A stretch of DNA of 63,899 bases, counting the filler, from Folioceros fuciformis (Eukaryota), in NCBI GenBank assembly GCA_049999805.1. It is 5 parts of 5 records of this genome, joined end to end, with 100 filler letters (N's around TTAATTAATTAA, not from the genome) between each part and the next. Parts side by side here need not be neighbours in the genome. Positions count along the whole stretch, not along the records: positions 1 to 20,685 come from JBNGIO010006330.1; 4 more parts are not named here. One strand, given 5' to 3'. Below, piece by piece: positions 4,455 through 63,899 of this stretch (within the stretch, counting starts at the first letter, position 1; each line of letters starts with the position of its first letter). The translations under genes and the position numbers were made by a program. The notes below the pieces were generated by a model. It saw only the letters and a program-made list of their open reading frames with translations. It had not been told where the DNA came from and ran no database searches.

Positions 4455-5933
4455 CTACAAGTCAAACAGAACCCAGATAAGCGACAACAAAGCGACAGTG
4501 GTAGCTCCCGTGGTTAGGATCTTCTGCCCCTTGCCTGAAACCGGAAGTTGAAGAACGGGTGTAGGTGCAGGGGGAGGCGGGGGAGGGAGCAATGCTAAGT
4601 CTGCTCCAGAGCACACGTTGAGTCCTAGCACCAAAGCCGTTCCACCCAGGGTCGGCGGGTAGCACAATCCAGCATTTTGGGAGAGAGCAAGGTTGTTCCC
4701 CAGTCGCAATACAAACTCCAAAGTGAAGGGCAGAGGGCCAGTCAGGTTGTTCGAGCTGATGTTCAGCTTTTGGAGCTGAGATAGATCTCCTAAGGTTGGA
4801 GGAATGGCACCTGTGAAGTTGTTGCCGTCCAACGCCATGTACCTCACACTTGAGAGGTTACCGATGGATGCAGGAATATCTCCCGTGAAGCCTGCCTGTG
4901 ATAGGTCCAAGGCGGCGAGGCTCTTCAGTCCGGACCAGATGCTGTTCGGCAGAGGTACCTGCATACGGTTTCTGCGCAGCACGAGGTCCTGCAAGCTTGA
5001 GAGGGCTGTAAAAGCCTCTGGAATTCCACCGCTGAGGCTATTCGCACTGAGGTCTAGCAGAACCAAGGCGCCGAGCCCGCTGAGAGCCTCCGGAATCTGG
5101 CCTTGAAGGTTGTTGCCCGACAGGTCCAGCATCTGAAGATCGCGAAGCCTGCCAAGCTCAGAGGGGATGGTACCTTGGAAGCTGTTCTTGCTGAAATCTA
5201 GCAAAACCAAGCTCTTCAGGTTGCCAAGGCTGGGAGGAATGGTCCCTGAGAAATTGTTGTTGTATACCTCTAACTGAAAAAGGTTAGACAAGCTTCCAAG
5301 TTCCGTAGGAAGTCTACCCTGAAGACCGTTCTGAATCAAGATCAGGCGCTGCAGACCTCTAATGCTGCTGATCTGAGGAGGGAGCTTTCCAATCAAAGTG
5401 GGATTTCTCTGGAAGGACAGGACTCTGAGGTTGGAGAGCCTAGAAATGTTGGAAGGGATAACAGCAGATGCATTGACAAAACAAGAAAGAAATTGAAGAT
5501 TGGTGAGATGTACGAGGTTGAACAGAGAAGGATGTATATAAGCTCTGCCCCCGCAGATGATGTTCGTCGAGAGGTCGGACGTGGAGCCCAACTCCAACGA
5601 TGTCACATAGTAGGTTCCGTTGATAGGATTACAGGAGATTCCCGTGGGCCCATAACAAGGATCAGGATAATACTTAGGCCAGTCATACTCATCGTTCACA
5701 GCTTTCCAAACATCAAACACGGCTTTCACCTCCAGATCTGTCAAGGTTGGGGCGAAGTAGTCATCAGCTGGACCGGCTGCTGGAGAGGCAGATGGAGAAG
5801 GGGGGAACGACGACTCCGGGGCTATCAGTCCATGCGATCTACAACTAAAACAGAGAAGAATCCACCAAACCACACTGAGAAAACGGGGTACTGGGTTTGA
5901 GAAACACGCGACATTTGAGAGCTCCTTGCACAT
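4455..5933 (-). CDS. Intronless LRR receptor-like protein, PII-2/RLP29-like (no kinase domain)
   Basis: First ATG at 5933. N-terminal hydrophobic stretch, cap DWPKYYPDPC..GISC, about 10 plant extracellular LRRs (LxxLxLsxNxLxGxIP), C-cap NAGLC, Pro-rich linker, terminal hydrophobic segment with no cytoplasmic tail. Confidence 0.88.
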   Translation of the reverse strand: MCKELSNVACFSNPVPRFLSVVWWILLCFSCRSHGLIAPESSFPPSPSASPAAGPADDYFAPTLTDLEVKAVFDVWKAVNDEYDWPKYYPDPCYGPTGISCNPINGTYYVTSLELGSTSDLSTNIICGGRAYIHPSLFNLVHLTNLQFLSCFVNASAVIPSNISRLSNLRVLSFQRNPTLIGKLPPQISSIRGLQRLILIQNGLQGRLPTELGSLSNLFQLEVYNNNFSGTIPPSLGNLKSLVLLDFSKNSFQGTIPSELGRLRDLQMLDLSGNNLQGQIPEALSGLGALVLLDLSANSLSGGIPEAFTALSSLQDLVLRRNRMQVPLPNSIWSGLKSLAALDLSQAGFTGDIPASIGNLSSVRYMALDGNNFTGAIPPTLGDLSQLQKLNISSNNLTGPLPFTLEFVLRLGNNLALSQNAGLCYPPTLGGTALVLGLNVCSGADLALLPPPPPPAPTPVLQLPVSGKGQKILTTGATTVALLSLIWVLFDL

Positions 5934-7429
5934 GTTGAGATCGCTGGACGAAAGCACACTGTCAGAACCCAACCGAACAACGAAGACCACAAATGCACAT
6001 TCCCAGCGGGAACAAATCAAAACTGAAGCACACAGCACGGCGGGGCGGGCTCACGTTTTTGGACAACTGACGGGGAGCTGCGCTGTAGCACGTCGCGGAG
6101 GAAACTGTCAGTTCAGGTACTGAGATTCCAACCTCCAAGACGACGCAAGACTGACTTAGCGAGAGCAAATTCCTGCATCGCTGTGAAAGCGAGAGACCTT
6201 CGGCTGCGCTGGACGAGCAGATAGACGAAAGCCGAAGACAACGCCTTCACTAGCTCAGAATCTTCTCTCCGCCATGGGAATCCAGTCAGCAAAGCAGGAA
6301 CGCCTGGGAAAAATTTCTGCACACGGAAACTTCAAGAAAGAAGACTGCAGCCACTGGCCTTCCGACGGGGAGCCCCGACGTGCACGCCTGAAGCGCAAGA
6401 CAAAGGCTTCAACTGTCTGCAAGGGAAGGAATTGGCGAGGCCCCAGAACGCAGCGGACTCGCAGACAGACAAAATCGAGCTGGGAGTCCCAGCAGAACCC
6501 ATTCCGGGCGAATCCGCGTCCCCCCCTCACTCGCTCCGGCAAAGCAGACACCAATTCCTCAACCGAGAACTTGCTCCTTCCCGACTCCTCACAGCAGCAA
6601 CCAATGCCACGAGGCGTTCAAAAATCTAGGGGCTCCAGAGCGCTTGCAGCGAGAAGCTGCCGGCAGCCCCGGCCCCCAAACCCATCTCTGACAGGCAGAC
6701 TTAAAGACAAGGCAGCAGCTGGTTTTTGGGACAGCGGCGAGGAGCAGGCAGTGGTCGAAGAGAGCAGTGAACAGTGAGACGTGAGAGAAATGGAGGAGGC
6801 TGAGCAATGATGAGAAGTGGCGCGGGGCTCTAGAGAAGAAGTGGCTCAACACAGGGGAAATGAAAGCGGAGGGCAGGCGTACCCGACAGCCGCGGGAGGC
6901 CGAAAGCAACCACAGCGCACCACACGGCGAAACGGGCGCAACTCGGCGCCCCATCGAGTCCCGCGACGGGCCGGAGTGGCGCAAAGTACTTAAACTCCAA
7001 CGCTCACGCATAGAAGGTGGCCCCTGTGTACGACACCAGGCAGACGACATGCTTACAGGATACAAAGTATCATGTTTGTGCAACCACCAGAGCAGCCAGT
7101 TGAGCGTCGGCGACAGTGGGCGGTACATTAGCACCCCTGAAATCTATGTATTAAGTCAATAGCTGCATAATTGTTGTGCAAGGACTGGTGCAACGCCAGT
7201 GATGGTGGCAGGCTGCTCCTTACATGGTACCCACTGACTGCAGTAAGGAAGGAAAGAAAAACTGTGCGCAGTGAAATGCCGGGGGGCTATAAAACGCACT
7301 ACAGCTGGCCTGGACATGCGAGCAACCTGCATACGGGCCAATGATATGAAGGCAGCAATTGCAAAGGGGAGCTTCGCTGCCACTGGCTTGATGGGGGAAA
7401 CATTTAACAAAACAAAACCTGCGGTAAGC

Positions 7430-13906: not shown

Positions 13907-14082
13907 GGGGGCGAAGGCTAGCATATATAAACGTTGGCAATTCAAGCTCCAAGCATCTTGTTGTGAATGCCGTGGACAAGAGAGGAGGCCCGAGAGGCTA
14001 GCATGCATAAACATTGGCAATTCAAGTTCTAAGCATCTCGTTGTGAACGCCATGACTAGAGGGAAGGCCCGAGAGGCTAGCA
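13907..14082. repeat. Tandem repeat, ~80-bp unit x ~2.2
   Basis: AGGCTAGCAT..ATAAAC.TTGGCAATTCAAG.T..AAGCATCT.GTTGTGAA.GCC repeated; AGGCTAGC recurs a third time. Confidence 0.85.
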
Positions 14083-15139
14083 ACCCTACATGCTTGACAC
14101 CTTGGAGGTGTGGAGTACTTGATCCGTGAAACCCTACTGAATGCTAAACCCCATGATGTTTCCTATCTTTGTGTATAACTTTAAAGACTATATGGCACCT
14201 TGATCTTTAATGATCAGGGTGTGGGAACCCTTAAAAAACAAAGGGATGTGTTGGTATCGGTCCACATGCCCCATATAGTGATAAGACAAAAAGTCTGTCT
14301 ACGGTGCAAAGGCAGGCAGGCCCTATGATGTGGCGATGTTGAGTACAGGAATATGAAGTAAGTATGAGAGAAAAATAACATGAGTGTGTGGGCCATATCT
14401 TATTCCATAACGTTCATACCAACATAGCAGTATTAAAATAATGATTAATGTGTAGAGTATCAATACAAAAAGATATATAAGATCCAAGGGTGTGACTCTT
14501 GCGAAGCGTTATTGGTCACAATGAAAGCAATGAGCGCACGAGTCTCGAGGTGCCTGGCCATGCTCCCATGCCATAAACGGCCATATTACTTAATGGCTCA
14601 TTCCCAACGGGCAACCCATTCTCGACGGTGCTGGCACGGGACTGTGAGCGTTGCGCAACAATGCAATACCACAGCATACCACCGGTATTGTGTATACATA
14701 CATAGTTTTACACGATCAACGGTTTTCCGGCCGCATGTGTGTGCAGATTTCAAACTAAGCTCTCTTCTCTCTCCCGACTTTTCACTCTTCGGCTCTCGAA
14801 GGCGTGCATTTGTGTTCAGTCTAATACCTATGTTTCTAGAGCTTGTGACAATGACAGAGTTTCAAGCGCCATTGCCTTGAAGTTCATCTGAAGAGCAATC
14901 TTGTTAAGTAGAGTATAGACGACAAGCGAGAGGCAACTTTGAAGACTCAACCATTTAAATTGAGTTCAGTAGCATAATGAAGGTTGATTTGCAGAGTGTT
15001 GTTCCTCAATTGTTGGACAAGGAACCTATGCAACTTTGAAGACTCAACCATTTGAATTGAGTTCAGTAGCATGATGAAGGTTGATTTGCAGAGTGTTGTT
15101 GCTCAATTGTTGGAAGAGGAGCCTATGCAACTTAGTAAG

Positions 15140-15412
15140 ATACCCGTTCGGGTAGTTGTTGTTGGTTTCGATATCGGCTCACATGTATACCGTGGGTGTA
15201 GCGAATGTATGACAGGAATGGCACCAAATGGCTAGTGCAGAAAGTGCAAATTGCACACAACTAGTCCTATCTAGTACCGGCTTTGATTATTAATTGAAGA
15301 TAAAAGATGCCAAGCATGGGCAACGACATTCATTGCTGGCAAGGATTTCACTCATCTCACCCCTCAGGAATTCAGTGTGAAGCAACTACAAGGCCAGGCC
15401 CTGGTGTATTGG
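15140..15412 (+). pseudogene. RPA70 C-terminal-like OB-fold/zinc-ribbon ORF inside the MULE, three in-frame stops
   Basis: Manual translation: IPVRVVVVGFDIGSHVYRGCSECMTGMAPNG*CRKCKLHTTSPI*YRL*LLIEDKRCQAWATTFIAGKDFTHLTPQEF. This matches the YxxCxxC..CxxC..YrL.l.i.D....w.t.F pattern of Rep_fac-A_C. Confidence 0.65.
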
Positions 15413-15746
15413 AGCCAACAAGTGCCTTTGGCTCTGCCTGAAGTCCTTTGCTCATGCTTGTCGGTGGTAGTGACAAATCATTATTGACTTGCTACCCACT
15501 CTGCAACTTATGGTGATTTTTATGCTTCCTGCATTGTAGGCTTTGCCATGTGGTGGTTGTTGTAAGTTAATATACTGTTCCTAAATGCAATCCCACGGTC
15601 TCTTCCTATGGTTGGAATCACACGGTATTTCATGTATCACGAAGCACATGCAACCAGTTTCAAACTTGTGTGTGTAAATTGGAACTCAAATGTGTGGGAT
15701 GCACATTACATTCAACAGAAGATTAATCCCGTGATGCACTAGCCAT

Positions 15747-17257
15747 CTAGACAAACGTGGCTCGCTTTTGTCTAGGAGGTACCTTCCACCCCCTTGCCCT
15801 ACTCTCCCAAAATGGGAGCTTTTGTTTCAAGCTGTTATCCTTGTCACTAGTATTAGCTACCTCAAGCAATAAAGAAAGTTGACTGCTTCCTTCGGTTTTC
15901 ACACCTAGGCCTTCCAATTGCCTAATCAATTGTTGCAGCATTGCACTTGCATGACGCTGTATAAAGGAGTATTTGTCCACCACAACACTTAACTAGCCCC
16001 AAAGTCACTCCAATGTTTGTGACTCTTGGCCCCTTGCACCTACAGTTCCTGAAAATTCACAGGACACTTGCATAGGGAGTACTTGTGATGTTGTGATGTA
16101 TCCACCTGTTGGCTCCAAGGATGCTCGCCACAATTGTTGTCTTGTCGAGCAAGGTTAGATTGGGCTGGCATATGTCGCTGTTAAGTTTTCTGGTAGCAAT
16201 TTTACAGTTTTTGCAACTAAACGCTTAGTTGGAACTACTTTGTCTAAAAGCAACATCACCTTCAATAGGTGCTTGCACATGAAGCCCTTGGCCCCTTTTT
16301 TGCAATTGCACTAGCCCCACGGTGTACTAGCCCCACTCATAACATACTCTTTGAGTCTCCTAGATTCTTCACTTGTGACATAAGCAAAATGATATGTGGA
16401 TGCCATAGATGATAGGAAAACATGATTGTCTAGAATGTCAAATGCTTTATGCAAAGCACTTCAAACTAGTTGCTCATGCTTACTATTTTGGATAATACCA
16501 ACGGTTTTGCACTGAGCTGCATATTAGAAATGACGATTTACTTCCTCAAACAAGATGTATAGTGACTAGTCGAGTCGCATGCTTGGCATGGTTTTCTTGG
16601 ATAACAAGCACCTATACTTCATATGCTTGTGGTACACTTCAATTGAAGAGTTGCAATCCTAGCTTGCATGGGGCGCGGTTCTCACAGCTTTTATCCATTG
16701 GTCCATGTTAGGACCCCATTCTTCCTTGAAATACTGCTGAATGTTCGAAGGTCTCATAAAAGGCATGCATCCGCAATTTTCCTACTTCAACGTCCAGCCT
16801 ATGAGGAGTGTCCATATACATCAAGCGCTTACATAATGGCATGTCTCGTGGATGAGTCTTTAACCTTCTTCAACAATTGACGTAACTATGCTGTGCGAAT
16901 GTGCCACAAACAAAGAAACACCATGATGAATGAGCCGAACACAGTTTTGATAGCATTTATTTCAGCCTGACTATTGGACAATATCCAACCCTGTGGCTTG
17001 GCTTTGCTTGTGATGATCCATGCCGCGAGGATACGATTGCAGTGCTCATCGAACACTAAGAGAGTAAAGAGCTGGAATTTCCACTTAATCGTCCCAAATG
17101 TGGCATCCATTGCTATCATGGAGCTGTGGCCATACATCACCATAGCTTGTATCTGGAATTCAGTTTGGATACTAAGCATGAAGTCCACACCCTGCTGGTC
17201 TACACCCGGCTGTGGAAAGAAAACATGTTGCTGGTGGATGGCCATCCACATCTTCAC
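15747..17257 (-). pseudogene. MULE transposase remnant (MULE DDE domain plus SWIM zinc finger)
   Basis: ..YGHSSMIAMDATFGTIKWKFQLFTLLVFDEH...VFLCLWHI (16886-17257); SWIM motif CNCKKGAKGFMCKH at ~16269-16310; stops and frameshifts. Confidence 0.85.
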
Positions 17258-18213
17258 ACTAAACCCTAAACCCGGCGGTGTGTGGTCATGTTATGCGAGC
17301 ATCCCTAAACCCTAAACCCCTGTTCTAGAGGATCTATTTGCCGTCCTTCGCAAGCGATGTCTGGATTAAGGAGACACGGTCATCATGGACGCCCTACTTA
17401 TGTCGTAACGGAAAAGATCACTTATGCAAATCTTCGGGAGAGAGAAGGGAGCTCCATTTGAAATTTGCACATTCCATTGTTCTCCCGCCAGCCAGTCTCA
17501 TCGTGTATTACTATGTATGTATCTCATCGTGTATTACTATGTATGTATATACAATACCCGTGGTATGCTGCACAATATTGCGTGGTCCCGCAACGCTCAC
17601 CGTCCCGCACCAGCGCCGTGGGGAATGGGTCACCCGGCATGCGGGCATGGCCAGGCACCTCGAGACTCGGGACTCGTGCGCTCATTACTTTCACCGATAG
17701 CGCCTGCGGTCACTCTTTATGAAGGGATACAACCCTAACTATTAAATAAATGGCAAGTAATGAATCTCTAATAAATTAACAGAGTAGATATTCCATGCAG
17801 AATGTCATTTGGGAAGCGGGCCGTAGGTAAACATTGTCCATGCACCATGGGCTGACAAGTGACATAATGGCGCCTGGGTATGTTATTACCTGAGAGGTGG
17901 TGACGACACGTTTGCCGGGCTGGGGAGCTAGAACGGTCTCGGCCGTTTAATGCTGACGTCTCCCCGCCCTGACCTCCTAGTAGTAGCCGCAGCAGGAGGA
18001 GTTTGTCAGCGGTTTACTGATATGTGCCATTCCTTGAGTTCCTAACGGCAGGACTAGTTAAATTTGTCAGCCGTAGGCCCCTATACTGTCCTTAAGAGCC
18101 TGTTCAATGCCGACGGTGATGGACGATCAAACACACCAGTCTACTCCGCAAGCTGCTGCCCGGAAAGGTAAGATGCTCGCAGAACAAGACGTTGTGCTGT
18201 CGCAGAAAATGTG

Positions 18214-20685: not shown

Positions 20686-20785
20686 NNNNNNNNNNNNNNN
20701 NNNNNNNNNNNNNNNNNNNNNNNNNNNNNTTAATTAATTAANNNNNNNNNNNNNNNNNNNNNNNNNNNNNNNNNNNNNNNNNNNN
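20686..20785. other. Assembly gap with artificial TTAATTAATTAA spacer (also 52040-52139, 57342-57441, 61713-61812; plain N gap at 24451-24550)
   Basis: The same 12-mer is centred in N runs four times and gives stops in all six frames. Confidence 0.95.
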
Positions 20786-35743: not shown

Positions 35744-37967
35744 ATGAGGATATTGCCTTTGTTGCCCCTGGTGGCGGTGGCCACGGTGGTGCTCTGCTTG
35801 CTGGCGTTCCAGGTGGATGGATCTATTCACGTGTATAAGGATGCCAAGTTCGTCAAAATGCCCAAGGCTGGGAACACGTACTTGTTCCACGGCGGCAGCG
35901 AGGGTCTTTACAGATCCAAGCCGAGGGAAGGGTCATCTAACGGCGTATCCAACGGCAAGTCTTACATAAGGTGCTTCCTAACTGTGCTGTGTTGTGGTGC
36001 ACTAGGCTGACATTGGTCTCTGAGGTCGCCCCTTCTTGTTGCGTGGTTTGGTAGATCGGTGTGGCCGGGTCCGGTGGAAAGGACCCTGGCAGGAGCAGGG
36101 GATTGGGCTCGTTCGTTTTGCGGAAGCTGCATGTTTGGGAGGCCGAGGCAGCTGTCCCGTGCTCGCAACGGTTATAGCTGCTGACTCACTTCGCGTTGTG
36201 TATGCTCAGATTGCGGAGTGGCCTGGAGTTCAGGAGAAGGCCGGAGATGGCTGGGACGTACAGTGCGACCGAATTCTCGACAGGGCTTGTAGAAGCAGTT
36301 ATTTTTGAGGTCGGGGACATGGATAAGATCGGGGATACCTTCGAGGTGGGCCAGCGCTCGCTTTGCTGTACTCCTGATTTGGCCAAGGAGGGGACCTGCC
36401 AGGTTGGATCCGTGATCGTGCGTCCGTCAGAGGGCTGGCCGCATGTTTCTCAGATTCACTTCGGCTCCAATAAGAATTCGACTAAATTAATGTCTGAGGA
36501 ATACATCGAGATCCCCAGGACGGGTTTCTACACCCTGTACTTCGTTGCGTGTGACAGCAAGCTGGATGGACTGGTCATTTCGGGCCAGACAGATTGGAAG
36601 AATCCTAATGGATATCTGCCTGGGAGGATGTCACCATTTCTCACCTTCTATGGTTTCATGTCAGTGGCATATGTGCTCCTGGGAGTCGTCTGGTTTTTCC
36701 AGTATGTGCGCTTCTGGAAGGATATCTTGCAGCTCCAGAATTGTATCACAGTAGTCATTGCTCTAGGCATGTGCGAGATGTCCATGTGGTACTTCGAGTA
36801 TGTCAACTTCAACATAACTGGATACCGGCCTGTTGGTATCACCTTGTGGGCTGTAACCCTCGGGGCTGTCAAAAAGACTGTTTCTCGTCTGCTCATTTTA
36901 GTGGTCTCCATGGGCTATGGGGTTGTGCGACCAACTCTTGGTGGGCTGACCTCCAAGGTCATCTTGTTGGGAGGCACATACTTTTTAGCTGCAGAGTCTT
37001 TGGATGTCGTGGAGAACGTTGGAACTATTAACGACCTGTCTGGGAAGGCTAGGCTGTTTTTAGTACTTCCTGTTGCTGTCCTGGATGCATTTTTCATTCT
37101 ATGGATCTTCACATCACTCTCAAGGACTTTGGAAAAGCTTCAGGTTTGATAGTATCACCAAGCGAGTGCACTTTGCCACAGATTGTTCAATTGTACATGA
37201 CGACACATGATGTAATTATGTCCGCGTTGCTGGGCTTGCCGTTTACATTGTTTGTCCTGTTGCAGGCGAGGAGGAGGTATGCCAAGCTTGAGTTGTATCG
37301 GAAATTCACAAATTCGCTTGCTGTTGCTGTAGTGATTGCAGTAGCCTGGATAGGGTATGAGGTAAAGATCGTCTCTTTTGTTGTCTGCTGCAATTTCCTT
37401 CCTCTGGTTCATGACTGAAAGATTTGGTGTGCTGCTGTGCAGTTGTACTTCAAAGCTACGGATCCCTACAGCCAGCGCTGGAGAAGTGCCTGGATAATCT
37501 CCGCGTTTTGGAATATTTTGACGTTTGTGCTTCTCGGTATTATCTGTGCTCTCTGGGCACCTTCTCAGAATGCAACCAGGTAAGTATTGCCCTTGCTCTC
37601 TGTGTCCCCTCTAGCTAGGGCTGAATGAAGTATTTGCAAGTACCCCTTCACTGAAAGTGTGCATCTTCTGGCTGACTCGAATGTTCTTTTACCAGTGTTT
37701 TCGAAAGCTCTGGTTGTGCTCGGACTCGCTGACAGGATGGGATGGTCGTGTGGTTGGTGGTTTCTGTGCTTCCCTAGGTATGCCTTCTCAGAGGATGTGG
37801 CTGAGGACTTCGATGAGGAGGAAGCTGTGGCATTGGCACCTACGAACTCATCGAAGGTTGCTGAGGCTGATAACTTCGGAGCCAATGGAGAGAAGAAGGA
37901 GAAAAAATCCGTCAACACTGACGTATTCAGTCTTGAGGATGATCCCGAGGAGGATAAGAGAGAGTAG
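35744..37967 (+). CDS. Lung seven-transmembrane receptor family protein (TMEM87/GPR107-like), multi-exon
   Basis: Signal peptide plus SIHVY; CCTPDLAKEGTC; WKNPNGYLPG; LQNCITVVIALGMCEM; LILVVSMGYGVVRPTLGG; KLELYRKFTNSL; LWAPSQN..RYAFS; acidic tail ending EEDKRE*. Confidence 0.93.
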
Positions 37968-46130: not shown

Positions 46131-47368
46131 CTCAATGGGGTACCTGGATCGTGAGCCGTGACGACGTTGCTGGACACTCTGCATTGTCATGATGTCCCTT
46201 CAGGATGATGAAACTGATGAAGCGGACGAGTCTTCGTCAGTAGTTGTTAGAAAAAACGCTTGCTATTCCTACGTCATCGTGATCTGAACACGAAAACGAT
46301 GTCACGATGGGATAACAGGGACACAAGGGTTGCATGTAACACTTGCCGGTTTAGGTTTCGGGCAGCGCACACCTGGTTACATTGGTGGCGGGAGCAGGGA
46401 GGGCGACCACGACCGCGCACCGGCAGCAGTCGGTAGGAGGCTGGAAGGCGACAACATGTACATTGTCAGCAGGAGCCTGTACGAGATGTCTCAGGAGCTA
46501 GTGATGGAAGGGAGCCTTGGAGAAGGAGATGACCGCTGCGTCATAGACGCGATATACAACGTACCGCAACAGGCAACAGCTGACGTCCCACTAGACGCTA
46601 ACAAGTAAAACGACAGTCATTGAGAAGATGGATCAAGCGACAGTAGCTGCCTGTTGTCGGGGAGTCGACCTCAGCGAAACTGCGAAACTGGTAGGTGAGC
46701 GGGCAAACATCACAGGAGCTGGCAGCTGCAGCTCCGATTGAATGTTCCACATTTTACGAGACCTGCTGGCCACGCTGATGCGAGGGAAGCTTCACGCAAC
46801 AGCCGTGGATTTGGTTTCCATAACCAAATGTGGATAGTAGAGAGCTTCTTCTCCTGTGTCCATGGCTGCTGATGACACCGAACGCAAGACAGCGAGACCT
46901 CAACAGTGTTGCAACCTCCATCCCTGTCCCGGAAGGTCCCGATGCACACGAGGGCCAACGCCGTTTGCGTGTCCTCCCCCTCTTGGCTCGCCGTCTCAGC
47001 CACAGTGCAAGATGTGAGACATAAATCCGAGCTTGCCGCTACTGTGCTGACGCTGATCCACAACTCCTTCCGCCGCATCCTGCAGCCCTATGTAAGCCCG
47101 GTACGTATGCTGGAACTGCCAGAGCACTCCGCTATCGGAAGCATTGCTCAGACCGGTACACCTGCAACTCGAGTTTTTAGGTTGCGTGCATGAGCGTGTG
47201 GATTGTGAGCCACCAGATCTTGGCCATCCAAATTAATCCATTCCCGCCATAGCTGGAGGTCGCATCATCGAGAGCCGGGGATACAACCACTCGCTAAGAA
47301 CTCGGTCGCATCGCATAGGATTGGAGAAGATCAGGCTCGCTTCCGGGAAATTCATCAAGAAACTCTCG

Positions 47369-48982
47369 ATGAAGATTATCGAGCTGCTGCGCCTGCTGCT
47401 GCCGCTTTTCCTGGCGTGGTGCGCGCCCGGGGCTGGGCAGGGGGGCAGCTGGGAGCTGCTTGTGGAAAATGCGGGGATCTCGTCCATGCACACAACGGTG
47501 ACGAGGTTCGGGAACGTGGTGATGCTGGACCGCACCGACGTCGGGGCGTCGCAAATCCAGCTTCCGGCGGGCGTGTGCCGGGACAACCCTAACGATCAGT
47601 CGCTTCAGCACGACTGCACGGCGCACTCGGTGCTCTTCTCCCCGGGCGCCAACAACGCCATCCGGCCGCTCTTCGTCTACACCGACACATGGTGCTCGTC
47701 GGGGCAGTTCTTCGCAGACGGGACCCTCTGGCAGACGGGCGGGGACAACGACGGTCTGAACCGCGTGCGCACCTTCACCCCGTGCGCGGATGGCGGCAAC
47801 TGCGACTGGCAGGAGCGGGACGACGTCTACCTGCAGGACGGCCGCTGGTACGCCTCCAACCAGCTGCTACCGGACGGGACGCAGATCGTGGTGGGCGGCC
47901 GCTCGGTGTCGACGCTGGAGTACATTCCGGCCAACGGGCGCGGCAAGGTGTATGTGGATCTCCTCCAGCGCTCCCAGGACTCGCAGTCCGACAACATGTA
48001 CCCTTACGTGCACCTCCTCCCCAACGGCCAGCTCTTCATCTTCGCCAACCAGGACTCCATCATCTACGACTGGACCTCCGACACCGTGGTCCGCGACCTC
48101 CCGACGCTGCAGGGCGGCCCCCGGAATTATCCTTCGGCGGGATCCTCCGTGCTCCTGCCACTGGTGGCCAGCAACGGCTTCTGGGATGCGCAGGTGGTGG
48201 TGTGCGGGGGCGCGGCCTCCGGCGCTTACTCCAACCCGTCGGCACAGCTCCCGGCCGACGACTCCTGTGGGCGTATCTCCCCGCTGGCCACCGACCCGGA
48301 GTGGGAGATGGACACGATGCCCATCCGTCGAACCATGGGCGACATGGTCCTCCTCCCCACACGGGACGTGCTCATCATCAACGGCGCCGTGACGGGATCG
48401 CAGGGTTGGGAGAACGCGCAGAACCCGGCACTCACTCCTGTACTGTACCAGCCGAGCGCGCCTCTAGGATCGCGCTTCTCCACGCTCACCGACGCCACCG
48501 TCCCGCGGCTCTACCACTCCACGGCAAACCTGCTTCCCGATGGCCGGGTCCTGATCGCCGGCTCCAACCCCCACCAGTACTACACGTTCAACGTCCAGTT
48601 TTCCACCGAGCTCCGCGTGGAGGCCTTCTCCCCCGACTACCTGGATGGTCGCCACGCGGGTGCCAAACCCTACATCGCCTACGCCCCGGACCATGTCGGG
48701 TACGGAGCCATCTTCACAGTGCTTTTCACCACTGGCTCCGGGGCCGCGCCGGCCAGCATCGAGGTGAACCTCATGAGCGCGCCCTTCGCCACGCATTCCT
48801 TCTCCATGGGCCAGCGCCTGCTGCATCTCGAGGTCGGCGACCCCCGGCCCGGTGATGGCGGCAGCTTCTTGGTCGACGCCACCTCGCCGCCCAACGCCAA
48901 CATCGCCCCGTCCACCTACTACATGCTCTTCGTGGTGGGAGACGGAGTGCCGAGCACTGCGGTCTGGATTCACATGGCATAA
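47369..48982 (+). CDS. GLOX: Secreted glyoxal/aldehyde oxidase (copper radical oxidase, AA5-like), intronless
   Basis: ATG at 47369 with signal peptide; GISSMH; DCTAHS; TDTWCSSG (Cys); RWYASN (Tyr); PRLYHS (Tyr-His); IAGSNP; FATHSFSMGQR (His). Cofactor and copper-ligand positions are present. Confidence 0.94.
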   Translation: MKIIELLRLLLPLFLAWCAPGAGQGGSWELLVENAGISSMHTTVTRFGNVVMLDRTDVGASQIQLPAGVCRDNPNDQSLQHDCTAHSVLFSPGANNAIRPLFVYTDTWCSSGQFFADGTLWQTGGDNDGLNRVRTFTPCADGGNCDWQERDDVYLQDGRWYASNQLLPDGTQIVVGGRSVSTLEYIPANGRGKVYVDLLQRSQDSQSDNMYPYVHLLPNGQLFIFANQDSIIYDWTSDTVVRDLPTLQGGPRNYPSAGSSVLLPLVASNGFWDAQVVVCGGAASGAYSNPSAQLPADDSCGRISPLATDPEWEMDTMPIRRTMGDMVLLPTRDVLIINGAVTGSQGWENAQNPALTPVLYQPSAPLGSRFSTLTDATVPRLYHSTANLLPDGRVLIAGSNPHQYYTFNVQFSTELRVEAFSPDYLDGRHAGAKPYIAYAPDHVGYGAIFTVLFTTGSGAAPASIEVNLMSAPFATHSFSMGQRLLHLEVGDPRPGDGGSFLVDATSPPNANIAPSTYYMLFVVGDGVPSTAVWIHMA

Positions 48983-51215: not shown

Positions 51216-52139
51216 CCCCCAGCTCAATCAATCGTCCTCGGAGGTCAAAAGTGGTGCAGTCTGACGCTCTCTCGCCTACCACATGTGACTGAAGAGCCTG
51301 TACGATCCGATCAGCGTCTGGGCCGTGACTGCACCCTGCTCGCCCGGTCGAATCCCCCACGCCATAACTGCGAGGGCCCACGGTCCTCGTTCCAGAAGCC
51401 CGTTAGAAAACGGGGCGATTAAGTGTGTGCTTGGCTTACGTACACCAAACATTCGCCGACTGCCATGGCCAGAGGAGCAGCATGCTCTCTCCTCGTGGTG
51501 GAGAGGAGAGAAGATGTCGTGCGTCCACATCCTCTCTCAATGCGAAACCCGTCACCGGCCCAAGTCCCTGGCGCCAGGCTGACACAAATATCATCAGATA
51601 TGTGTTGTACCCCAAACACACATACAACATCCACCCTGATGGGCAAGCGAAAGATCCCCGAAATGTGGCCCATGAGGCGGGCAAGTCAATGCAGGTGGGC
51701 CAGTTTGGAACTTTCTTGATGTTACTGGGCACAAAGAGCAGCCCGACGTGTCCCGGTGCCACCGTGTCGTGTCCAGGCAGGGGACACGAGTGTCATTAAG
51801 ATATTACTATATTCCCCCAAAATTGTAATGCGGCCAACCTCCCACCTCCAGCGCACACACATGCTTCGTTTGAATTCCCTTCCCTGCGTCTTTCCCGGTC
51901 GTTCGGCTGCAGATATGACGATGATACCCGGCGACCGGGAAACCGGGACCACCGGCTGTTGCTGATGCATTGGCAGCGCCTTTTTTTGGCACTGCCTCTC
52001 ATCGTCTCGCCTCGCCTGGCCTCGCCTCGCATTGCGTTGNNNNNNNNNNNNNNNNNNNNNNNNNNNNNNNNNNNNNNNNNNNNTTAATTAATTAANNNNN
52101 NNNNNNNNNNNNNNNNNNNNNNNNNNNNNNNNNNNNNNN

Positions 52140-57341: not shown

Positions 57342-57584
57342 NNNNNNNNNNNNNNNNNNNNNNNNNNNNNNNNNNNNNNNNNNNNTTAATTAATTAANNN
57401 NNNNNNNNNNNNNNNNNNNNNNNNNNNNNNNNNNNNNNNNNGATTGCTTGTGTCGTTACAAAACGAGCATTTGAATAAGACTAACGCTTCTAAACATTGC
57501 ATACCTGAAGTAGGCACAATGAGCAATGAGAGGAGACCTGCCGAACCTGAATTTGTGCCGGCAGTTTCCCAAGCACTTCCTTGA

Positions 57585-60500
57585 ATGCAGTTTCATGGAA
57601 GTGATGCTGTCTCAGAATTAATTGACCAGTCACTCGAAGAAGATTCTCTGAGCGGGATAGCATCTTTGTTCGGCATGGGTGACGAAGCCAACAACTTTGA
57701 TGCAGATCGTCGCCCTGAAGATCGACCTGATCGAAGAGACAGCAACATAAGTGTTTCAGTGAAACTGATAAAAAATATGCAGCCTGTTCGTTTCGAGTTC
57801 AAGGAGAAAGACAGGCTTACAAGTGGTGCTAATTATGATGTCTGGAAGTTGAGAATGAAGGGAATTCTGATGGAGCTTTCTCTGTGGGGGCATGTTTCTG
57901 GCGATGTCCCACACCCGTTTGATGACCCTATGCAGCTTCCAGGACAGCGGTCAGAGGACCAAGAAATGTGGGATCTCCTGGACATCCGGGCACAAAGTGC
58001 AATCAGGCTCGGCTTGGTTGAGGAGATGGTCACTGCCACATCAGCTGCAACAACATCCAAAGAGATGTGGGATCACCTGAGTATGGTGTATCATGGCAAA
58101 GATATGATGACAAAGATGTCAGCCAGCACTAAGTACTACAGTTTGAAAATGCGTGAAGGAGAACCTCTGGACCAATTTATTGGGAAGTTCCGAGTTGCGC
58201 GTCTCAAGTTGAAGCAGTCTGGCACTCGAGTGAAGGAGTCAGAGGCGTGTATGAGGCTCCTTTCAGCTCTTCCTGCAAGTTACATCAATTTTGTCACCAG
58301 CCAAAATGCAGTATTACGTCTGGCACAACAACTTGCACTGGTTTCAAATCTGAACGAGGATGAAATTCCAACTCTGAATGTGAATGAACTCATAGGAGCT
58401 CTAATGATGGAAGAGGTTAGCAGGCAGACCTTATCTGCTGCTAAGCCACCTAGGGGGCAGGCATTGTTTGCAGCCCGGCCTAAGGGGCCACGAAAAGCAC
58501 CTGGAAAGCCTTTCAAGTCTAAGGGTTTCGGGTCAGCTCCATCAGGTGAGGCATCAACAAGCAAGAAGAGACAAGGCAACTGCAACTGGTGCGGATTGCC
58601 TAATCACTGGGAGAGAGATTGCAGAAAGAAGAAGAATGGCGAACCCAGACGGGTACCTGCTCCTGAGGCCAATACTGTGGCCAAGAAGGAGAAGTCGACG
58701 CCGTCTGTGCTGATGGTTCGAGCATCCCCCTTCTCTGAGGCCTCTCCCCCTCCAAAACAGTCAAGGCCTCAGTCAGCACATGTCAAAAATTCACCTACTA
58801 TCCTAACAGTCTGTCTGTCCGCAACAGAGTCTCACACACCAAGTTGGTTTATAGATTCAGGGGCAACTGCCCACATTTGTCATGACAGGTTTGCTTTCTC
58901 TCAATACATTCTCCACTCTGAGTCACAAAATGTCCTGCTAGGGGACGACAGTGAGCTGCAGATTAGAGGTGTGGGTAGTGTCACCTTGAGGTTGGAAAAT
59001 GGCAGCACCTTGGTCCTGAACAGTGTACTTCACGTTCTTGCAATCACAAAAAACCTGGTGTCAGTGTGTCAACTTGTGCGCAGCAGAGAGATAGAGGTGT
59101 CCTTCAAGAGGTCTATGTGCGAGATCAAGCAGTCTGGCAAGCCCATTGCTACAGGTCACTTATCTAATGATCTGTTTCTCTTGAATGTCTCCAGTCTTCC
59201 CGTACCATCAGCACAGCTGGCAGGGGTCAGCCCCAGTGTCTCTGACTCAGATGTCACCAGAATCTGGCACATGCGCTTGGGACATCCAAACCCACGCAAG
59301 TTGAAAGACATGAGTACAAAGGACATCTACACAGATGGAGTACCGACAAAACTCACGTCTTTACCTTTTTGCGAAGCATGTGTATTTGGGAAGCATCACA
59401 AAACAGCCTTTCCAAAGGGAGGAGGCACTCGCGCAGCTGAAGCCTTGCAGCTGGTGCATGCAGATCTGTGCGGGCCAGTCTCTACACCCTCGTTTGGAGG
59501 AGGGATTTATTTCTTGACTTTCATTGATGACTACAGCCGCTTTGGTCATGTATATGTTCTCAAACACAAAAGTGATGCATTTGCATGCTTTAAACAGTAC
59601 AAGACCATGGTGGAGAGACAGACCTGTAAGAAACTGCTTTGCCTGCGTACGGATAATGGAGGAGAATTCGACTCTGAAGCATTTAACTCATACTGCAGTG
59701 ATCTGGGCATCTTGAGGCAGTATACAGTGCCGTACAGTTCATCTCAGAATGGAGTGGCTGAACGCAGAAATCGGTCTGCACAAGACATTGCCAGAACATT
59801 ACTTAAGCAGGCACATTTGCCCTTAGCATACTGGGGAGAAGCGATTTACACAGCAAATTATCTTTATAATCGCTTACCTTGCAAAGCTCTTCAAGGAAAA
59901 ACCCCGTATGAAGCATGGTGCGGGAGGAAACCGTCTGTGCAACATCTTCGCACTTTTGGCTCACCAGCCTACGCACATATTCCAAAGGAGAAGTTAGCTC
60001 ACTCAAAACTGTCAGACCGTGCCAAGAAGTTGATTTTTATTGGATACACTGATGGCATTAAGGCATACAAGCTCTTCGATCCTCAAAGTCGAAGTGCACA
60101 ATATGCTAGGAGCGTAGTCTTCGACGAAGTCAGCCTGCTTTCACCCATGCATGACTCGTCAGCACCAGACCAGGCAGAGGAGGAATACCTGGAGTTCTCT
60201 GAGGCCCCTGGACATTTCAATGCTGACGTGAGGGGCCAGCTGTCTCAATTTGATCAATCCAATAGTAGCATATCCATGGATGTCGAAGATGACTCGGCCA
60301 CCATTGATGTCTCAGACGATCTCCTAGCTGACCTGGATGCACGAGCAGATATGAATGTGCAAGAAGTGCAACCTGAGCCTGTAGTGGAGCAAGCTGCCTC
60401 CACATCCCGGTATCCATCTCGGAACCGGTCAGCACCTGTCCAGTTTGACCCCAGTTACTGGACCAGGCACAGTCACACTGACTGGTCTACAGGCAAAACG

Positions 60501-61712
60501 GTGGAATCCATGCCAGCTACAGTGGGGGAGTCTGACCATGAAGAAGGCGGGAATAATGACACACTTGGTGACGTGTCGCTGCTGGCCACATTACAATCTG
60601 GTGTCCCGGATTTCTCAGTCCGCAAAGAAGTTGAGCACGCCCTGGCAGTTGCACTAGTGGATCCTCGGGACCCGTTAACAATGAAGGAGGCCTATTCTGG
60701 TCCTGACTCAAGCAAGTGGAAACAAGCAGTGAAGGAAGAGTACGACTCCCTCATCAAAAATCGGACATGGTCCTTGCAGCCTCTGCCATCAAACAGGAGA
60801 GCAATTTCCTGTAAGTGGGTGTTTAAAACAAAATATAAGGCAGACGGCTCAATTGAAAGATACAAAGCACGCCTCGTGGTTCGGGGATTTTCACAAAAAC
60901 CTGGCGAAGACTACTTTGAAACTTTTGCCCCTGTGATCAAGTTCCCAACCTTACGTATGGTACTTGCAGTCGCTGCACACTGTGACCTTGACTTGCAGCA
61001 GATGGACGTCCGCACCGCATTCCTCAATGGCCAGCTGGAGGAAGAAATCTACATGTCTCAACCGGAAGGCTACATCCAGAAAGGTAAGGAGAATTTAGTG
61101 TGCAAACTTCACAAAACATTGTATGGGCTGAAGCAAAGCCCTAGAGCCTGGCACACACGTCTGGATGGATTTCTAGTCAACAAATGCGGTTTTCAAACAT
61201 CAGCTGCGGACACAAACCTGTATATACTCAGGAAAGGAGGAGCATATCTGATGCTCCTGGTGTATGTCGACGACCTGGTCATGGCGGGGACACCTGGTCC
61301 AGGGAGCTTGATAGGCATGGTCAAAAATCTGCTGAAGGCTGAGTTCGACATGACAGACATTGGGGAACTTACCTGGTGCCTTGGAGTCGAGATAAAACGT
61401 GACAGGAAGAATAGGGTTCTCACCCTGTCACAGCGCAAGTATATCCTCGACAGCCTAGCAAAGTTCAACCTGGCAGAAGCACATGCAGCTGCAACACCTT
61501 TGACTACTGGCATCAAGCTCACGAGGGACCAGGCTGCCAGCACAGCAGAGGAGGTCAGTGACATGGCCAAAGTGCCGTACAAACAAGCAGTAGGAACTTT
61601 GATTTTTCTTACCTGTCTGACGCGAATGGATATAGCTTTCCCTGTTCGTCTTGTCTCCCAATTTCTGGCACATTTCGGGAGCGTGCACTGGACCCAGGTA
61701 AAGAGAATTTTC
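57585..61712 (+). mobile_element. Ty1/copia gag-pol, uninterrupted ORF (>1370 aa), cut by a gap before RNase H
   Basis: gag (NYDVWKLRM..LWGHV), CNWCGLPNHWERDC knuckle, protease WFIDSGAT, integrase WHMRLGH..CEAC/IDDYSR/RTDNGGEF/QNGVAER, RT KARLVVRGFSQ..LYGLKQSPRAW..YVDD. The order PR-IN-RT is diagnostic of copia. Confidence 0.97.
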
Positions 61713-61812
61713 NNNNNNNNNNNNNNNNNNNNNNNNNNNNNNNNNNNNNNNNNNNNTTAATTAATTAANNNNNNNNNNNNNNNNNNNNNNNNNNNNNNNN
61801 NNNNNNNNNNNN

Positions 61813-63899
61813 GTTGTCGAGAAACAGGGTCAATAAGTTTATATGCTTTGACTGTCTCGCTGTAGCCCACGAAGATGAGACGTTTGGAGCGGTTGTCTAA
61901 CTTACGCCTCTTGTCTGCAGGAATATAGGCAAAGGCCTTAGAGCCAAAAATTCGGAGATGGAGAAGGCTCGGTTTACGATGCCAAAGCAGCTCAAAAGGT
62001 GTCTTGGAGACTAAAGAGCTGGTTGGTAAGCGGTTTTAAATATAGGTAGAGGTAACCACAGCCTCTGCCCAATAAGGTGAGGAGAGACCAGACCAAAGCA
62101 GCATTGCTCGTGTCATGCCCATTAGTGTTTGGTTTTTACGTTCAGCAACACCATTTTGTTGCTGTGTGCAAGGAACAATAAACTGGTGTGCAATTCCCTG
62201 TTCTGTGAAGAGGTCTTCAAAAGACTGATTTACAAACTCTGTCCCGTTATCAGATCTGAAGATCTTAAGGAGACAGCCTGTTTGGCGCTGCACTGTGGTC
62301 AACCAGTCTTGAAATAAGGGGAAAGTGTCGTTCTTTCTTTTCATAGGGAAAGTCCAGGTGTACCTTGTGTAGTCGTCTGTGATGGTGAAGTAATAATCTG
62401 CCCCTCCAAGTGAGGAAACCTGGAGGCAACCAGAAATATCAGCATGTACCAGTTCCAGGGGTGTGGTTGCTCTGTGAGCTGGTCCAGTAGGAAATGGCTG
62501 TTCCTTCTTCTTAGCCAGGGCACAAGTCTCACAAAGAGGGAGCTCTTTCAAACATGTTGGAATGGGCTCTCTGTAGTAGTCACTCTTACTAAGGGAGGAC
62601 AGAACCTTGCGATTTAGATGACCAAGCCTAGCATGCCATAGAATAGACTGCTGCTTAGCCGAAAGGGTTCCTACACTTGTAGAGTTGACTTCTTGTTTGC
62701 TTCCTGGAAGACAGGTGAAGTCCAGACGATACAAGTCATTCTCAGGCAGAGCCCTAAAGACACATATGGAAGGGGAGTCTATCCGAGAGAAACAGCAGTA
62801 ATGCTCGTGAGCTGTTAGCTGGAAAATCTTGAGCTGAAAAAGTTTGCTGAGAGACAGCAAATTCTTGGCCATGCTTGGAACATACAGGACGTCTGGAAGA
62901 GCAAGCGTAGACCCATCACTTAGCCTAAATGTGCAGGACCCCTGTCCTAGAATTCATAGGCTAGTGCTATTCCGTTCATCTCCCAAGTAGACTCTGTCTA
63001 CACTAGAGGAGGGGGTCAATGTCGTGAAGAGGGATTCCTCACGACATATATGGGCAGTAGCCCCAGAGTCCAAATACCAGGCTGCCTTGTCACCTGTGAG
63101 AGTGGACAGGCATATGGTTAGAATTTTAACCACCGGTTTGTTGGAATCTGCAGGTCTATCTTGAACAACAGAACTAGCAGAAGGACGAGGAGTCTTGCGA
63201 GGCTCCCCGGCCTTCTTCTTCCTGCATTCATTGGCCCAATGACCAGGTTTGCCACACCAATTGCAGCTTCCAGGACGTTTTGTTGAAGGACCTGCGTGAT
63301 TGCGTTGCCCTTCGTTTCTATTTCCCTGTTGTGAATTCTGTATCTTTGTTTTATCCTTATGTGCCCCTCTGCCACGGAATGCAGTAAGCACTTTGTCAGC
63401 TTTGGCTTTCCTAGTCCCTGACATGAGCCTGCTCTGCTCTTCCTGGAAGAGGGCACCTATAACCTCGTCTAAGGTAATAGTAATTTGTCTCCCAGCAGCA
63501 CCGGCAGCTATAGCCTGTCGGATGGGGACATTGTGGGCAAATACAAAAGTCTGGTAACTTGGTGGCAGGCTGGTGAGCAACTGAGCAATCACGTCCACCT
63601 CATCCATCACTGTACCAAGGGAAGTAAGTTGTGCTCGAAGATGTCTAAGTTTGCTGGTGTGAGCAAGAACTTTGTCACCCTCTCGCATCTTAAGTCCATA
63701 GAATTCTGTGCATAATGCACATAGTGTAAGGACATTACTGACTTTGTACTGGCTCTCTAACTGGGACCAAATTTCACTAGCCTTGGTTAGAAATTCTATA
63801 GGAGGAATGAGATCCTCTATCAGGCCAGAAACAAGAAGGGCTATACCTATGGTGTTTGCATGAGCCCACTTATCCTTATCTGCTTGAATGGCAGTTGCA
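61813..63899 (-). mobile_element. Ty1/copia gag-protease-integrase, degenerate, runs off the window
   Basis: A single frame from the window edge: LKMREGDKV, CNWCGKPGHWANEC, WYLDSGATAHIC, WHARLGH..CETC, TDDYTR, RSDNGTEF, QNGVAERKN. In-frame stops at 62954 and 62036. Confidence 0.95.

Follow-up and report, generated by a model that had tools for sequence, protein, structure and literature searches.

The window analyzed here is a stretch of 63,899 nucleotides from Folioceros fuciformis (GenBank assembly GCA_049999805.1), composed of five parts joined end to end, of which the first (positions 1 to 20,685) comes from JBNGIO010006330.1. In this first part a decayed Mutator-like element (MULE) of 3208 bp, at positions 14501-17708, holds a truncated transposase on one strand and, on the other, a convergent and equally decayed frame that probably encodes a domain resembling DNA-binding domain C (DBD-C) of RPA70, a subunit of replication protein A (RPA), and this layout is common to at least two copies. 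The question raised by the locus is whether such an RPA-like frame is a passenger of the transposon or what is left of a second gene that once served it; how the frame came to be in the element is what we infer below.

MULEs are recognized by long terminal inverted repeats (TIRs), a target-site duplication (TSD) of 8-11 bp, a MULE-type DDE transposase and, in many families, a SWIM finger. At this locus the left TIR (14501-14777, plus strand) and the right TIR (17434-17708, minus strand) share three collinear inverted blocks, pairing 14522-14572 with 17636-17693 (82.8% over 58 bp), 14608-14716 with 17526-17636 (81.1% over 111 bp), and 14740-14777 with 17434-17471 (86.8% over 38 bp). The arms thus measure about 275 bp including indels and are 81-87% alike, in agreement with the TIRs of about 280 bp reported in a preliminary description of the locus. 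Relative to the right arm, the left one bears a 36-bp insertion, and the right arm contains a perfect 26-bp tandem duplication (17496-17547). No further copy of the arms was found elsewhere within the 63.9-kb window.

The limits of the element were placed at 14501 and 17708 because a 9-bp direct repeat adjoins the arms there, GTGACTCTT at 14492-14500 and GTCACTCTT at 17709-17717, equal in eight of nine bases. In the scan for this repeat, 60 x 60 possible element ends were considered, and among these 3600 end pairs about 0.4 matches of 8/9 would be expected by chance according to our own arithmetic; the repeat is accordingly a plausible, not a proven, TSD. The preliminary description had recognized a real MULE, and its span of 14490-17715 is narrowed by the abutting repeat.

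The minus strand, reading inward from the right TIR, carries a MULE/SWIM transposase remnant (16200-17275), which was delimited by tblastn, Pfam and alignment to the plant protein P0005, and which covers residues ~250-630 of relatives of about 690 amino acids. With 134 codons, the frame at 16889-17290 is the longest on the minus strand; it retrieved 14 plant relatives of 569-814 residues (P0005-P0018; E 3.5e-15 to 3.3e-10), named as SWIM-type domain proteins; these angiosperm proteins are the closest relatives of the remnant, with 32-48% identity over the MULE core. By tblastn, all eight of the eight plant SWIM-domain proteins used placed residues ~250-445 on 17275-16856 and residues ~442-647 on 16760-16200, the latter block in a different frame from the upstream one, with a best combined E of 5.9e-38, which bears out the minus-strand transposase proposed earlier. 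Pfam matches to MULE (E 2.8e-4, 21.7 bits) and SWIM (E 0.0096, 15.9 bits) were under their gathering cut-offs of 27.6 and 19.6 bits, respectively. The SWIM motif CNCKKGAKGFMCKH is located at ~16250-16310, with its CxC...CxH pattern aligned to the SWIM of P0005.

Two aspartates (Asp62 and Asp81) and the glutamate of IEVYH are present in the remnant, and we take them to be the putative DDE triad of the MULE motif; on this view, the retention of these positions suggests that the ancestor of the remnant was a functional transposase. In contrast, the first of the three positions is a histidine in nine of nine aligned relatives, which, unlike the element, also possess the N-terminal ~250 residues. 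Between distantly related angiosperms (Aristolochia, Papaver, Cornus, Citrus, Dillenia, and Oxalis) the P0005-P0018 proteins have diverged little, and this conservation, together with the histidine in place of the first catalytic aspartate, suggests that they may constitute a domesticated MULE transposase family.

Alignment with P0005 places a single stop in the first block of the remnant and another five in the second, with a frameshift and a 23-residue gap between the blocks; in all, the ~358 codons contain at least six in-frame stops and at least one frameshift. Nothing in the element corresponds to the first ~250 residues of the relatives, just ~170 bp separating the homology from the right TIR, and the C-terminal ~60 residues of these proteins showed no homology in 15488-16199. 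The transposase gene is consequently incomplete, at variance with an autonomous two-gene (MuDR-like) MULE, in which it is complete. The space inside the right TIR that would be expected for the absent 5' part of the gene is occupied by two short CCCTAAA runs (17259-17320), a plant-type telomere motif read directly from the sequence; a repair event may have left them as filler, or they may be telobox-like promoter motifs.

The RPA-like frame lies on the plus strand at 15071-15487, reads inward from the left TIR, and is convergent to the transposase. It comprises 138 codons between a possible ATG at 15071 and a terminal TGA at 15485, is without intron, consists of one domain only, and is interrupted by three in-frame stops, TAG at 15233-15235, TAG at 15272-15274, and TGA at 15284-15286. 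As read from the sequence, a single transition in a sense codon could account for each of them. The decayed plus-strand frame of the preliminary description was hence recovered, its quoted Cys4/OB peptide pattern being present in a single frame and its explanation of the stops by transition decay agreeing with those located here. Its start at 14830, on the other hand, was too far upstream, since the same frame contains seven stops in the 76 codons of 14828-15055.

A 97-bp unit is repeated twice in tandem at 14933-15126 (plus strand, 94% alike) and duplicates the 5' leader of the RPA-like frame together with its first ~20 codons; as 97 is no multiple of three, the first copy does not share the reading frame. 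Between the two 3' ends, a spacer at 15488-16199 contains no Pfam family in any of the six frames. Moreover, a six-frame Pfam scan of the whole interval 14778-16201 returned no family at all, DUF223 and REPA_OB_2 included.

Regarding its identity, the frame very probably encodes an RPA70 DBD-C-like (zinc-ribbon OB) domain, judging from several comparisons, among which Pfam gave Rep_fac-A_C (PF08646) as the sole match, over profile positions 5-73 of 146, with an E of 0.044 for a 221-residue reading and 0.021 for a 144-residue reading. The scores, 14-15.1 bits where the cut-off is 28.5, leave room for a resemblance that arose by chance from a cysteine-rich stretch in junk DNA, and so does the lack of any match when the frame was scanned within 474 residues. 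The RPA70-like identity proposed in the preliminary description is thus probable, with a Rep_fac-A_C match that is under the cut-off and lost in the longer scan.

In a HMMER pass over 1.84 billion representatives, two proteins reached E<=0.001, and P0019 ranked above P0020, an order that fits a chance resemblance. P0019, a bacterial MBG/CHU_C repeat protein, was rejected as a spurious match. P0020, the sole genuine relative of the frame in that pass (library-wide E 9.5e-4), comes from a metagenome contig of 831 bp, measures 188 residues, and forms a one-member cluster. Its alignment with the frame shows 34% identity over 90 residues and a pairwise E of 3e-11, with all four cysteines matched, and the domain in P0020 begins at its own first methionine, the same point as the possible ATG of the frame. 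Also in line with chance, P0020 had no Pfam match at E<=10; furthermore, a word-index homologue search for its relatives returned only itself at near lengths and none among longer proteins.

The ESM Atlas, in turn, grouped P0020 with Rep_fac-A_C clusters of Streptophyta (22 of the 30 nearest clusters, with a score of 0.96), and the Atlas model of P0020 gave a structure TM of 0.58-0.64 over the Rep_fac-A_C part; this predicted model is the sole source of the putative OB fold. When a two-sequence profile was compared with the PDB at E<=10, the sole chain found was 4gnx_C (also 4gop), over residues 292-364, with the cysteines aligned and an E of 0.68. Deposited under the name 'putative uncharacterized protein', this chain is presumably the large RPA subunit (RPA70) of Ustilago maydis. 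The frame contains a CxxC...CxxC ribbon, whose CSEC...CRKC aligns with the four cysteines of both P0020 and 4gnx_C. A phmmer search of the 221-residue read-through against the PDB yielded no matches at E<=10. The AlphaFold2 models, with pLDDT values of 29.5 (fragment with P0020) and 30.0 (P0020 with fragment), were unusable, which likewise leaves chance a hearing. Nevertheless, searches of three different libraries agree on the domain and on the four cysteines, the pairwise E against P0020 is 3e-11, and the frame stays in register over 138 codons with single-codon stops only, so that a fortuitous resemblance is improbable.

Further evidence on the history of the element came from X1 and X2, DNA runs obtained from a single sample of this organism, whose contigs were compared with the window. 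Both contained the exact sequence and, in addition, a second form ~87-90% alike, which differed by 73 differences and 12 gaps over 576 bp (15675-16256), by 32 differences over 321 bp (16228-16549), by 55 differences over 505 bp (16228-16733), and by at least 22 differences in a contig spanning ~14746-15004. From X1, 19 of 50 pieces were >=99% alike and 27 were <90%; from X2, the corresponding numbers were 16 and 23 of 41. The depth summed over the bins of 14705-17383 approximates the depths of the exact and variant forms added together, whereas the right flank was covered by the exact contig only. At >=80% likeness, no variant contigs were found over the TIRs or the right flank, an absence that is no evidence either way. 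From the variant contigs, the summed depths and the right flank, at least one further copy, 87-90% alike and containing the RPA-like part as well as the transposase part, is present elsewhere in the genome. In this second form the RPA-like frame is broken by deletions of 19 bp (15401-15419) and 1 bp (15475) within 15400-15475. The segment is therefore not confined to a single copy; it was such a confinement that, according to the preliminary description, would have spoken against its interpretation.

In run X4, nearly all differences of the contigs over 14000-18200 from the window were C>T (84) or G>A (213) changes, a bisulfite-like pattern. Many cytosines of the element were apparently unconverted in this run, which would fit a methylated transposon. 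Among the runs listed as containing the element, none was of RNA.

The more economical reading, to which we assign about an even chance, is that the RPA-like gene is an acquired passenger without a part in transposition. It is favored by the habitual uptake of foreign coding sequence in MULEs, capture of this kind being treated as routine in the relevant passages of one report (PMC6446971). The element, now dead and non-autonomous, would once have moved by cut-and-paste, its long TIRs being the substrate of a MULE transposase of the DDE/SWIM type, a mode of movement taken from the family, and this past movement would have made the candidate 9-bp target duplication. Just the catalytic core and the SWIM finger of the transposase are retained, and tail to tail with them lies a small single-domain gene, a probable RPA70 DBD-C homologue. 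The latter may have been picked up from the large pool of plant RPA-like genes associated with transposable elements, carried along during multiplication of the element, and then left to neutral decay with the rest of it. Indeed, with three stops in 138 codons for the RPA-like frame and at least six stops plus a frameshift in ~358 codons for the transposase, both frames have decayed at similar rates, and frame-breaking indels distinguish the two copies.

Several observations weigh against this passenger reading. With a whole domain, an ATG, no intron, and an inward orientation from the TIR, the frame looks more gene-like than a random captured fragment would be, and the second copy shares the arrangement of RPA-like and transposase parts. 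The library searches revealed no close parent gene, so that capture is assumed, and the detectable relative is the orphan P0020 instead of an ordinary host RPA70. In addition, the RPA70 assignment itself depends on the agreement of several weak, sub-threshold or indirect lines, and the disappearance of the Rep_fac-A_C match in the longer scan marks it as fragile.

The comparison with Pack-MULEs points in both directions. As in these elements, a non-transposase coding piece lies between the TIRs and occurs in more than one copy; unlike Pack-MULEs, which have lost the transposase, the present element keeps a remnant of it, and its extra piece is a whole domain with a possible start codon for which the library searches found no close parent.

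In maize, MuDR contains the transposase gene mudrA and the accessory gene mudrB, which are convergent and each driven from a TIR. The element described here resembles MuDR in its long TIRs, its candidate 9-bp target duplication, and its two frames reading inward from the TIRs, and differs from it in that the second frame is RPA70 DBD-C-like OB and not MURB, and in that both frames are dead. By analogy, the element could belong to a MULE family with two genes, of which the RPA-like frame would be the second, now decayed. Like mudrB, this gene would have been expressed from a TIR, here the left one, and its small zinc-ribbon OB product might have helped transposition either through binding to single-stranded DNA (ssDNA) where the donor or target was gapped or through docking onto the transposase or host RPA32/RPA14. 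This explanation, which we consider unlikely, draws on the convergent layout, where the frame occupies the position of mudrB, on a complete domain whose candidate start codon falls where the orphan P0020 starts, and on the sharing of the arrangement by the second, ~87-90% copy. The strong divergence from host-type RPA would also be as expected, since fast-evolving transposon genes tend to diverge in this way. Furthermore, MULE accessory proteins are diverse and lineage-specific, and a survey (PMC12973397) tabulates an RPA OB accessory for one active cluster.

Against a second gene, the RPA-like frames of both copies seen are broken and no intact copy was seen among them, the frame-breaking indels differ between the two, and the two copies may stem from a single capture. 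The transposase, besides, is without its N-terminus, which in MuDR is the part that binds MURB according to the same survey's account (PMC12973397). A single internal deletion from a two-gene autonomous element is likewise a poor fit, since what is missing here is the 5' end of the transposase, both 3' ends having been retained.

A metagenome scan with the RPA-like alignment produced 438 pattern matches and no confirmed relatives, and the scan with the transposase alignment produced 79 loci (783 kb in total), in none of which was an RPA-like neighbor found (best E 4.0 by tblastn and 5.1 with the two-sequence HMM). This last result counts little against a second gene, given that most of the 79 loci are probably host SWIM genes, which say little about the element's own family. 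In this context, the preliminary description was right about a MULE with convergent frames and probably right about RPA70, and the two-gene family it envisaged is neither shown nor refuted. The broader claim, that a plant Mutator lineage recruited a stand-alone RPA70 DBD-C-like protein as a TIR-expressed accessory gene functionally analogous to MURB, is slightly more doubtful still; with the same reservation, such a recruit would link cut-and-paste transposition to ssDNA handling or to the host RPA complex.

A further possibility is that the RPA-like piece belonged to another element, for example a Helitron, of which a fragment was inserted, or patched in by gap repair, and then inherited. RPA-like genes are standard cargo of plant Helitrons in the passages of two reviews that deal with them (PMC9033089, PMC7385966), and the 700 bp of unassigned sequence following the frame would accommodate such a fragment. 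The Pfam top match and the Atlas placement of P0020 also put the frame in the same domain family as plant Helitron RPA-like genes and the Streptophyta DUF223/Rep_fac-A_C proteins. The frame differs from them in having just one DBD-C-like domain, with neither DUF223 nor REPA_OB_2, and is too divergent to be connected with them directly by HMMER. Unlike plant Helitrons, the element showed no RepHel and no Helitron terminus, given that Pfam detected no Rep/helicase remnant in any of its frames and no perfect-stem GC hairpin with CTRR was found on either strand, the latter being a weak test in decayed DNA. For a nested Helitron fragment, which the preliminary description had named as an outcome contrary to its proposal, no terminus was thus found inside the element, and we hold this origin to be improbable.

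In the library searched, no publication joining Mutator-like elements with RPA70 was found, and the papers that mention both Mutator-like elements and replication protein A did not link the two, judging by their titles and abstracts and by passages of PMC7385966. The corresponding sections of the reviews assign RPA to Helitrons only (PMC9033089, PMC7385966). In a survey published in 2025, which dealt with active plant MULEs, one of 1846 clusters has a REPA_OB_2 accessory (PMC12973397, Table S6), and its tabulated domains also include REPA_OB_2 once within a predicted transposase and tRNA_anti-codon OB twice, with no 'Rep_fac' entry (PMC12973397). In these tabulations, RPA-type domains in MULEs are rare singletons that are listed and not discussed; their rarity speaks for the passenger reading. 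The named MULE accessory genes, MURB, VANB/VANC, and MutB, are few and poorly understood, as summarized in part of another report (PMC6446971).

The surroundings of the element contain several ordinary host genes, namely an LRR protein (4455-6050, minus strand), a GOST seven-transmembrane protein (36178-37149, plus strand), and a glyoxal oxidase of 581 codons (47237-48982, plus strand; Pfam E 1e-101), all three in long uninterrupted frames, as well as a mitochondrial carrier, a PfkB kinase, and a fucosidase. Because of these long host-gene frames, the MULE is considered to lie in a gene-rich region, where MULEs often occur. An apparently intact Copia polyprotein of 1391 codons with gag, integrase, and RVT_2 (57585-61760, plus strand) is accompanied by a second, inverted Copia integrase fragment (62036-62953, minus strand). 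Paired 44-N blocks flank this Copia at 57342-57441 and 61713-61812, and similar ones were seen at 20686-20785 and 52040-52139. To the left of the MULE, 13915-14082 consists of a tandem unit of ~80 bp, 87-90% alike (repeat families D2 and D4). Sequencing depth at 14141-14281 was three to four times that of the neighboring bins, an excess indicating that another repeat family adjoins the insertion site.

In brief, the element is of a known kind, a MULE with extra coding sequence, and there is a minority chance that it represents a new type of accessory gene. The present copy is a fossil, for which the passenger reading is at least as likely as an accessory gene, and its main value is as a pointer, its TIR and RPA-like frame being usable as genome probes. 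Were a protein of the RPA type that binds ssDNA to prove a genuine accessory, this would suggest that Mutator transposition includes a step requiring the handling of ssDNA, and would recall the behavior of Helitrons.

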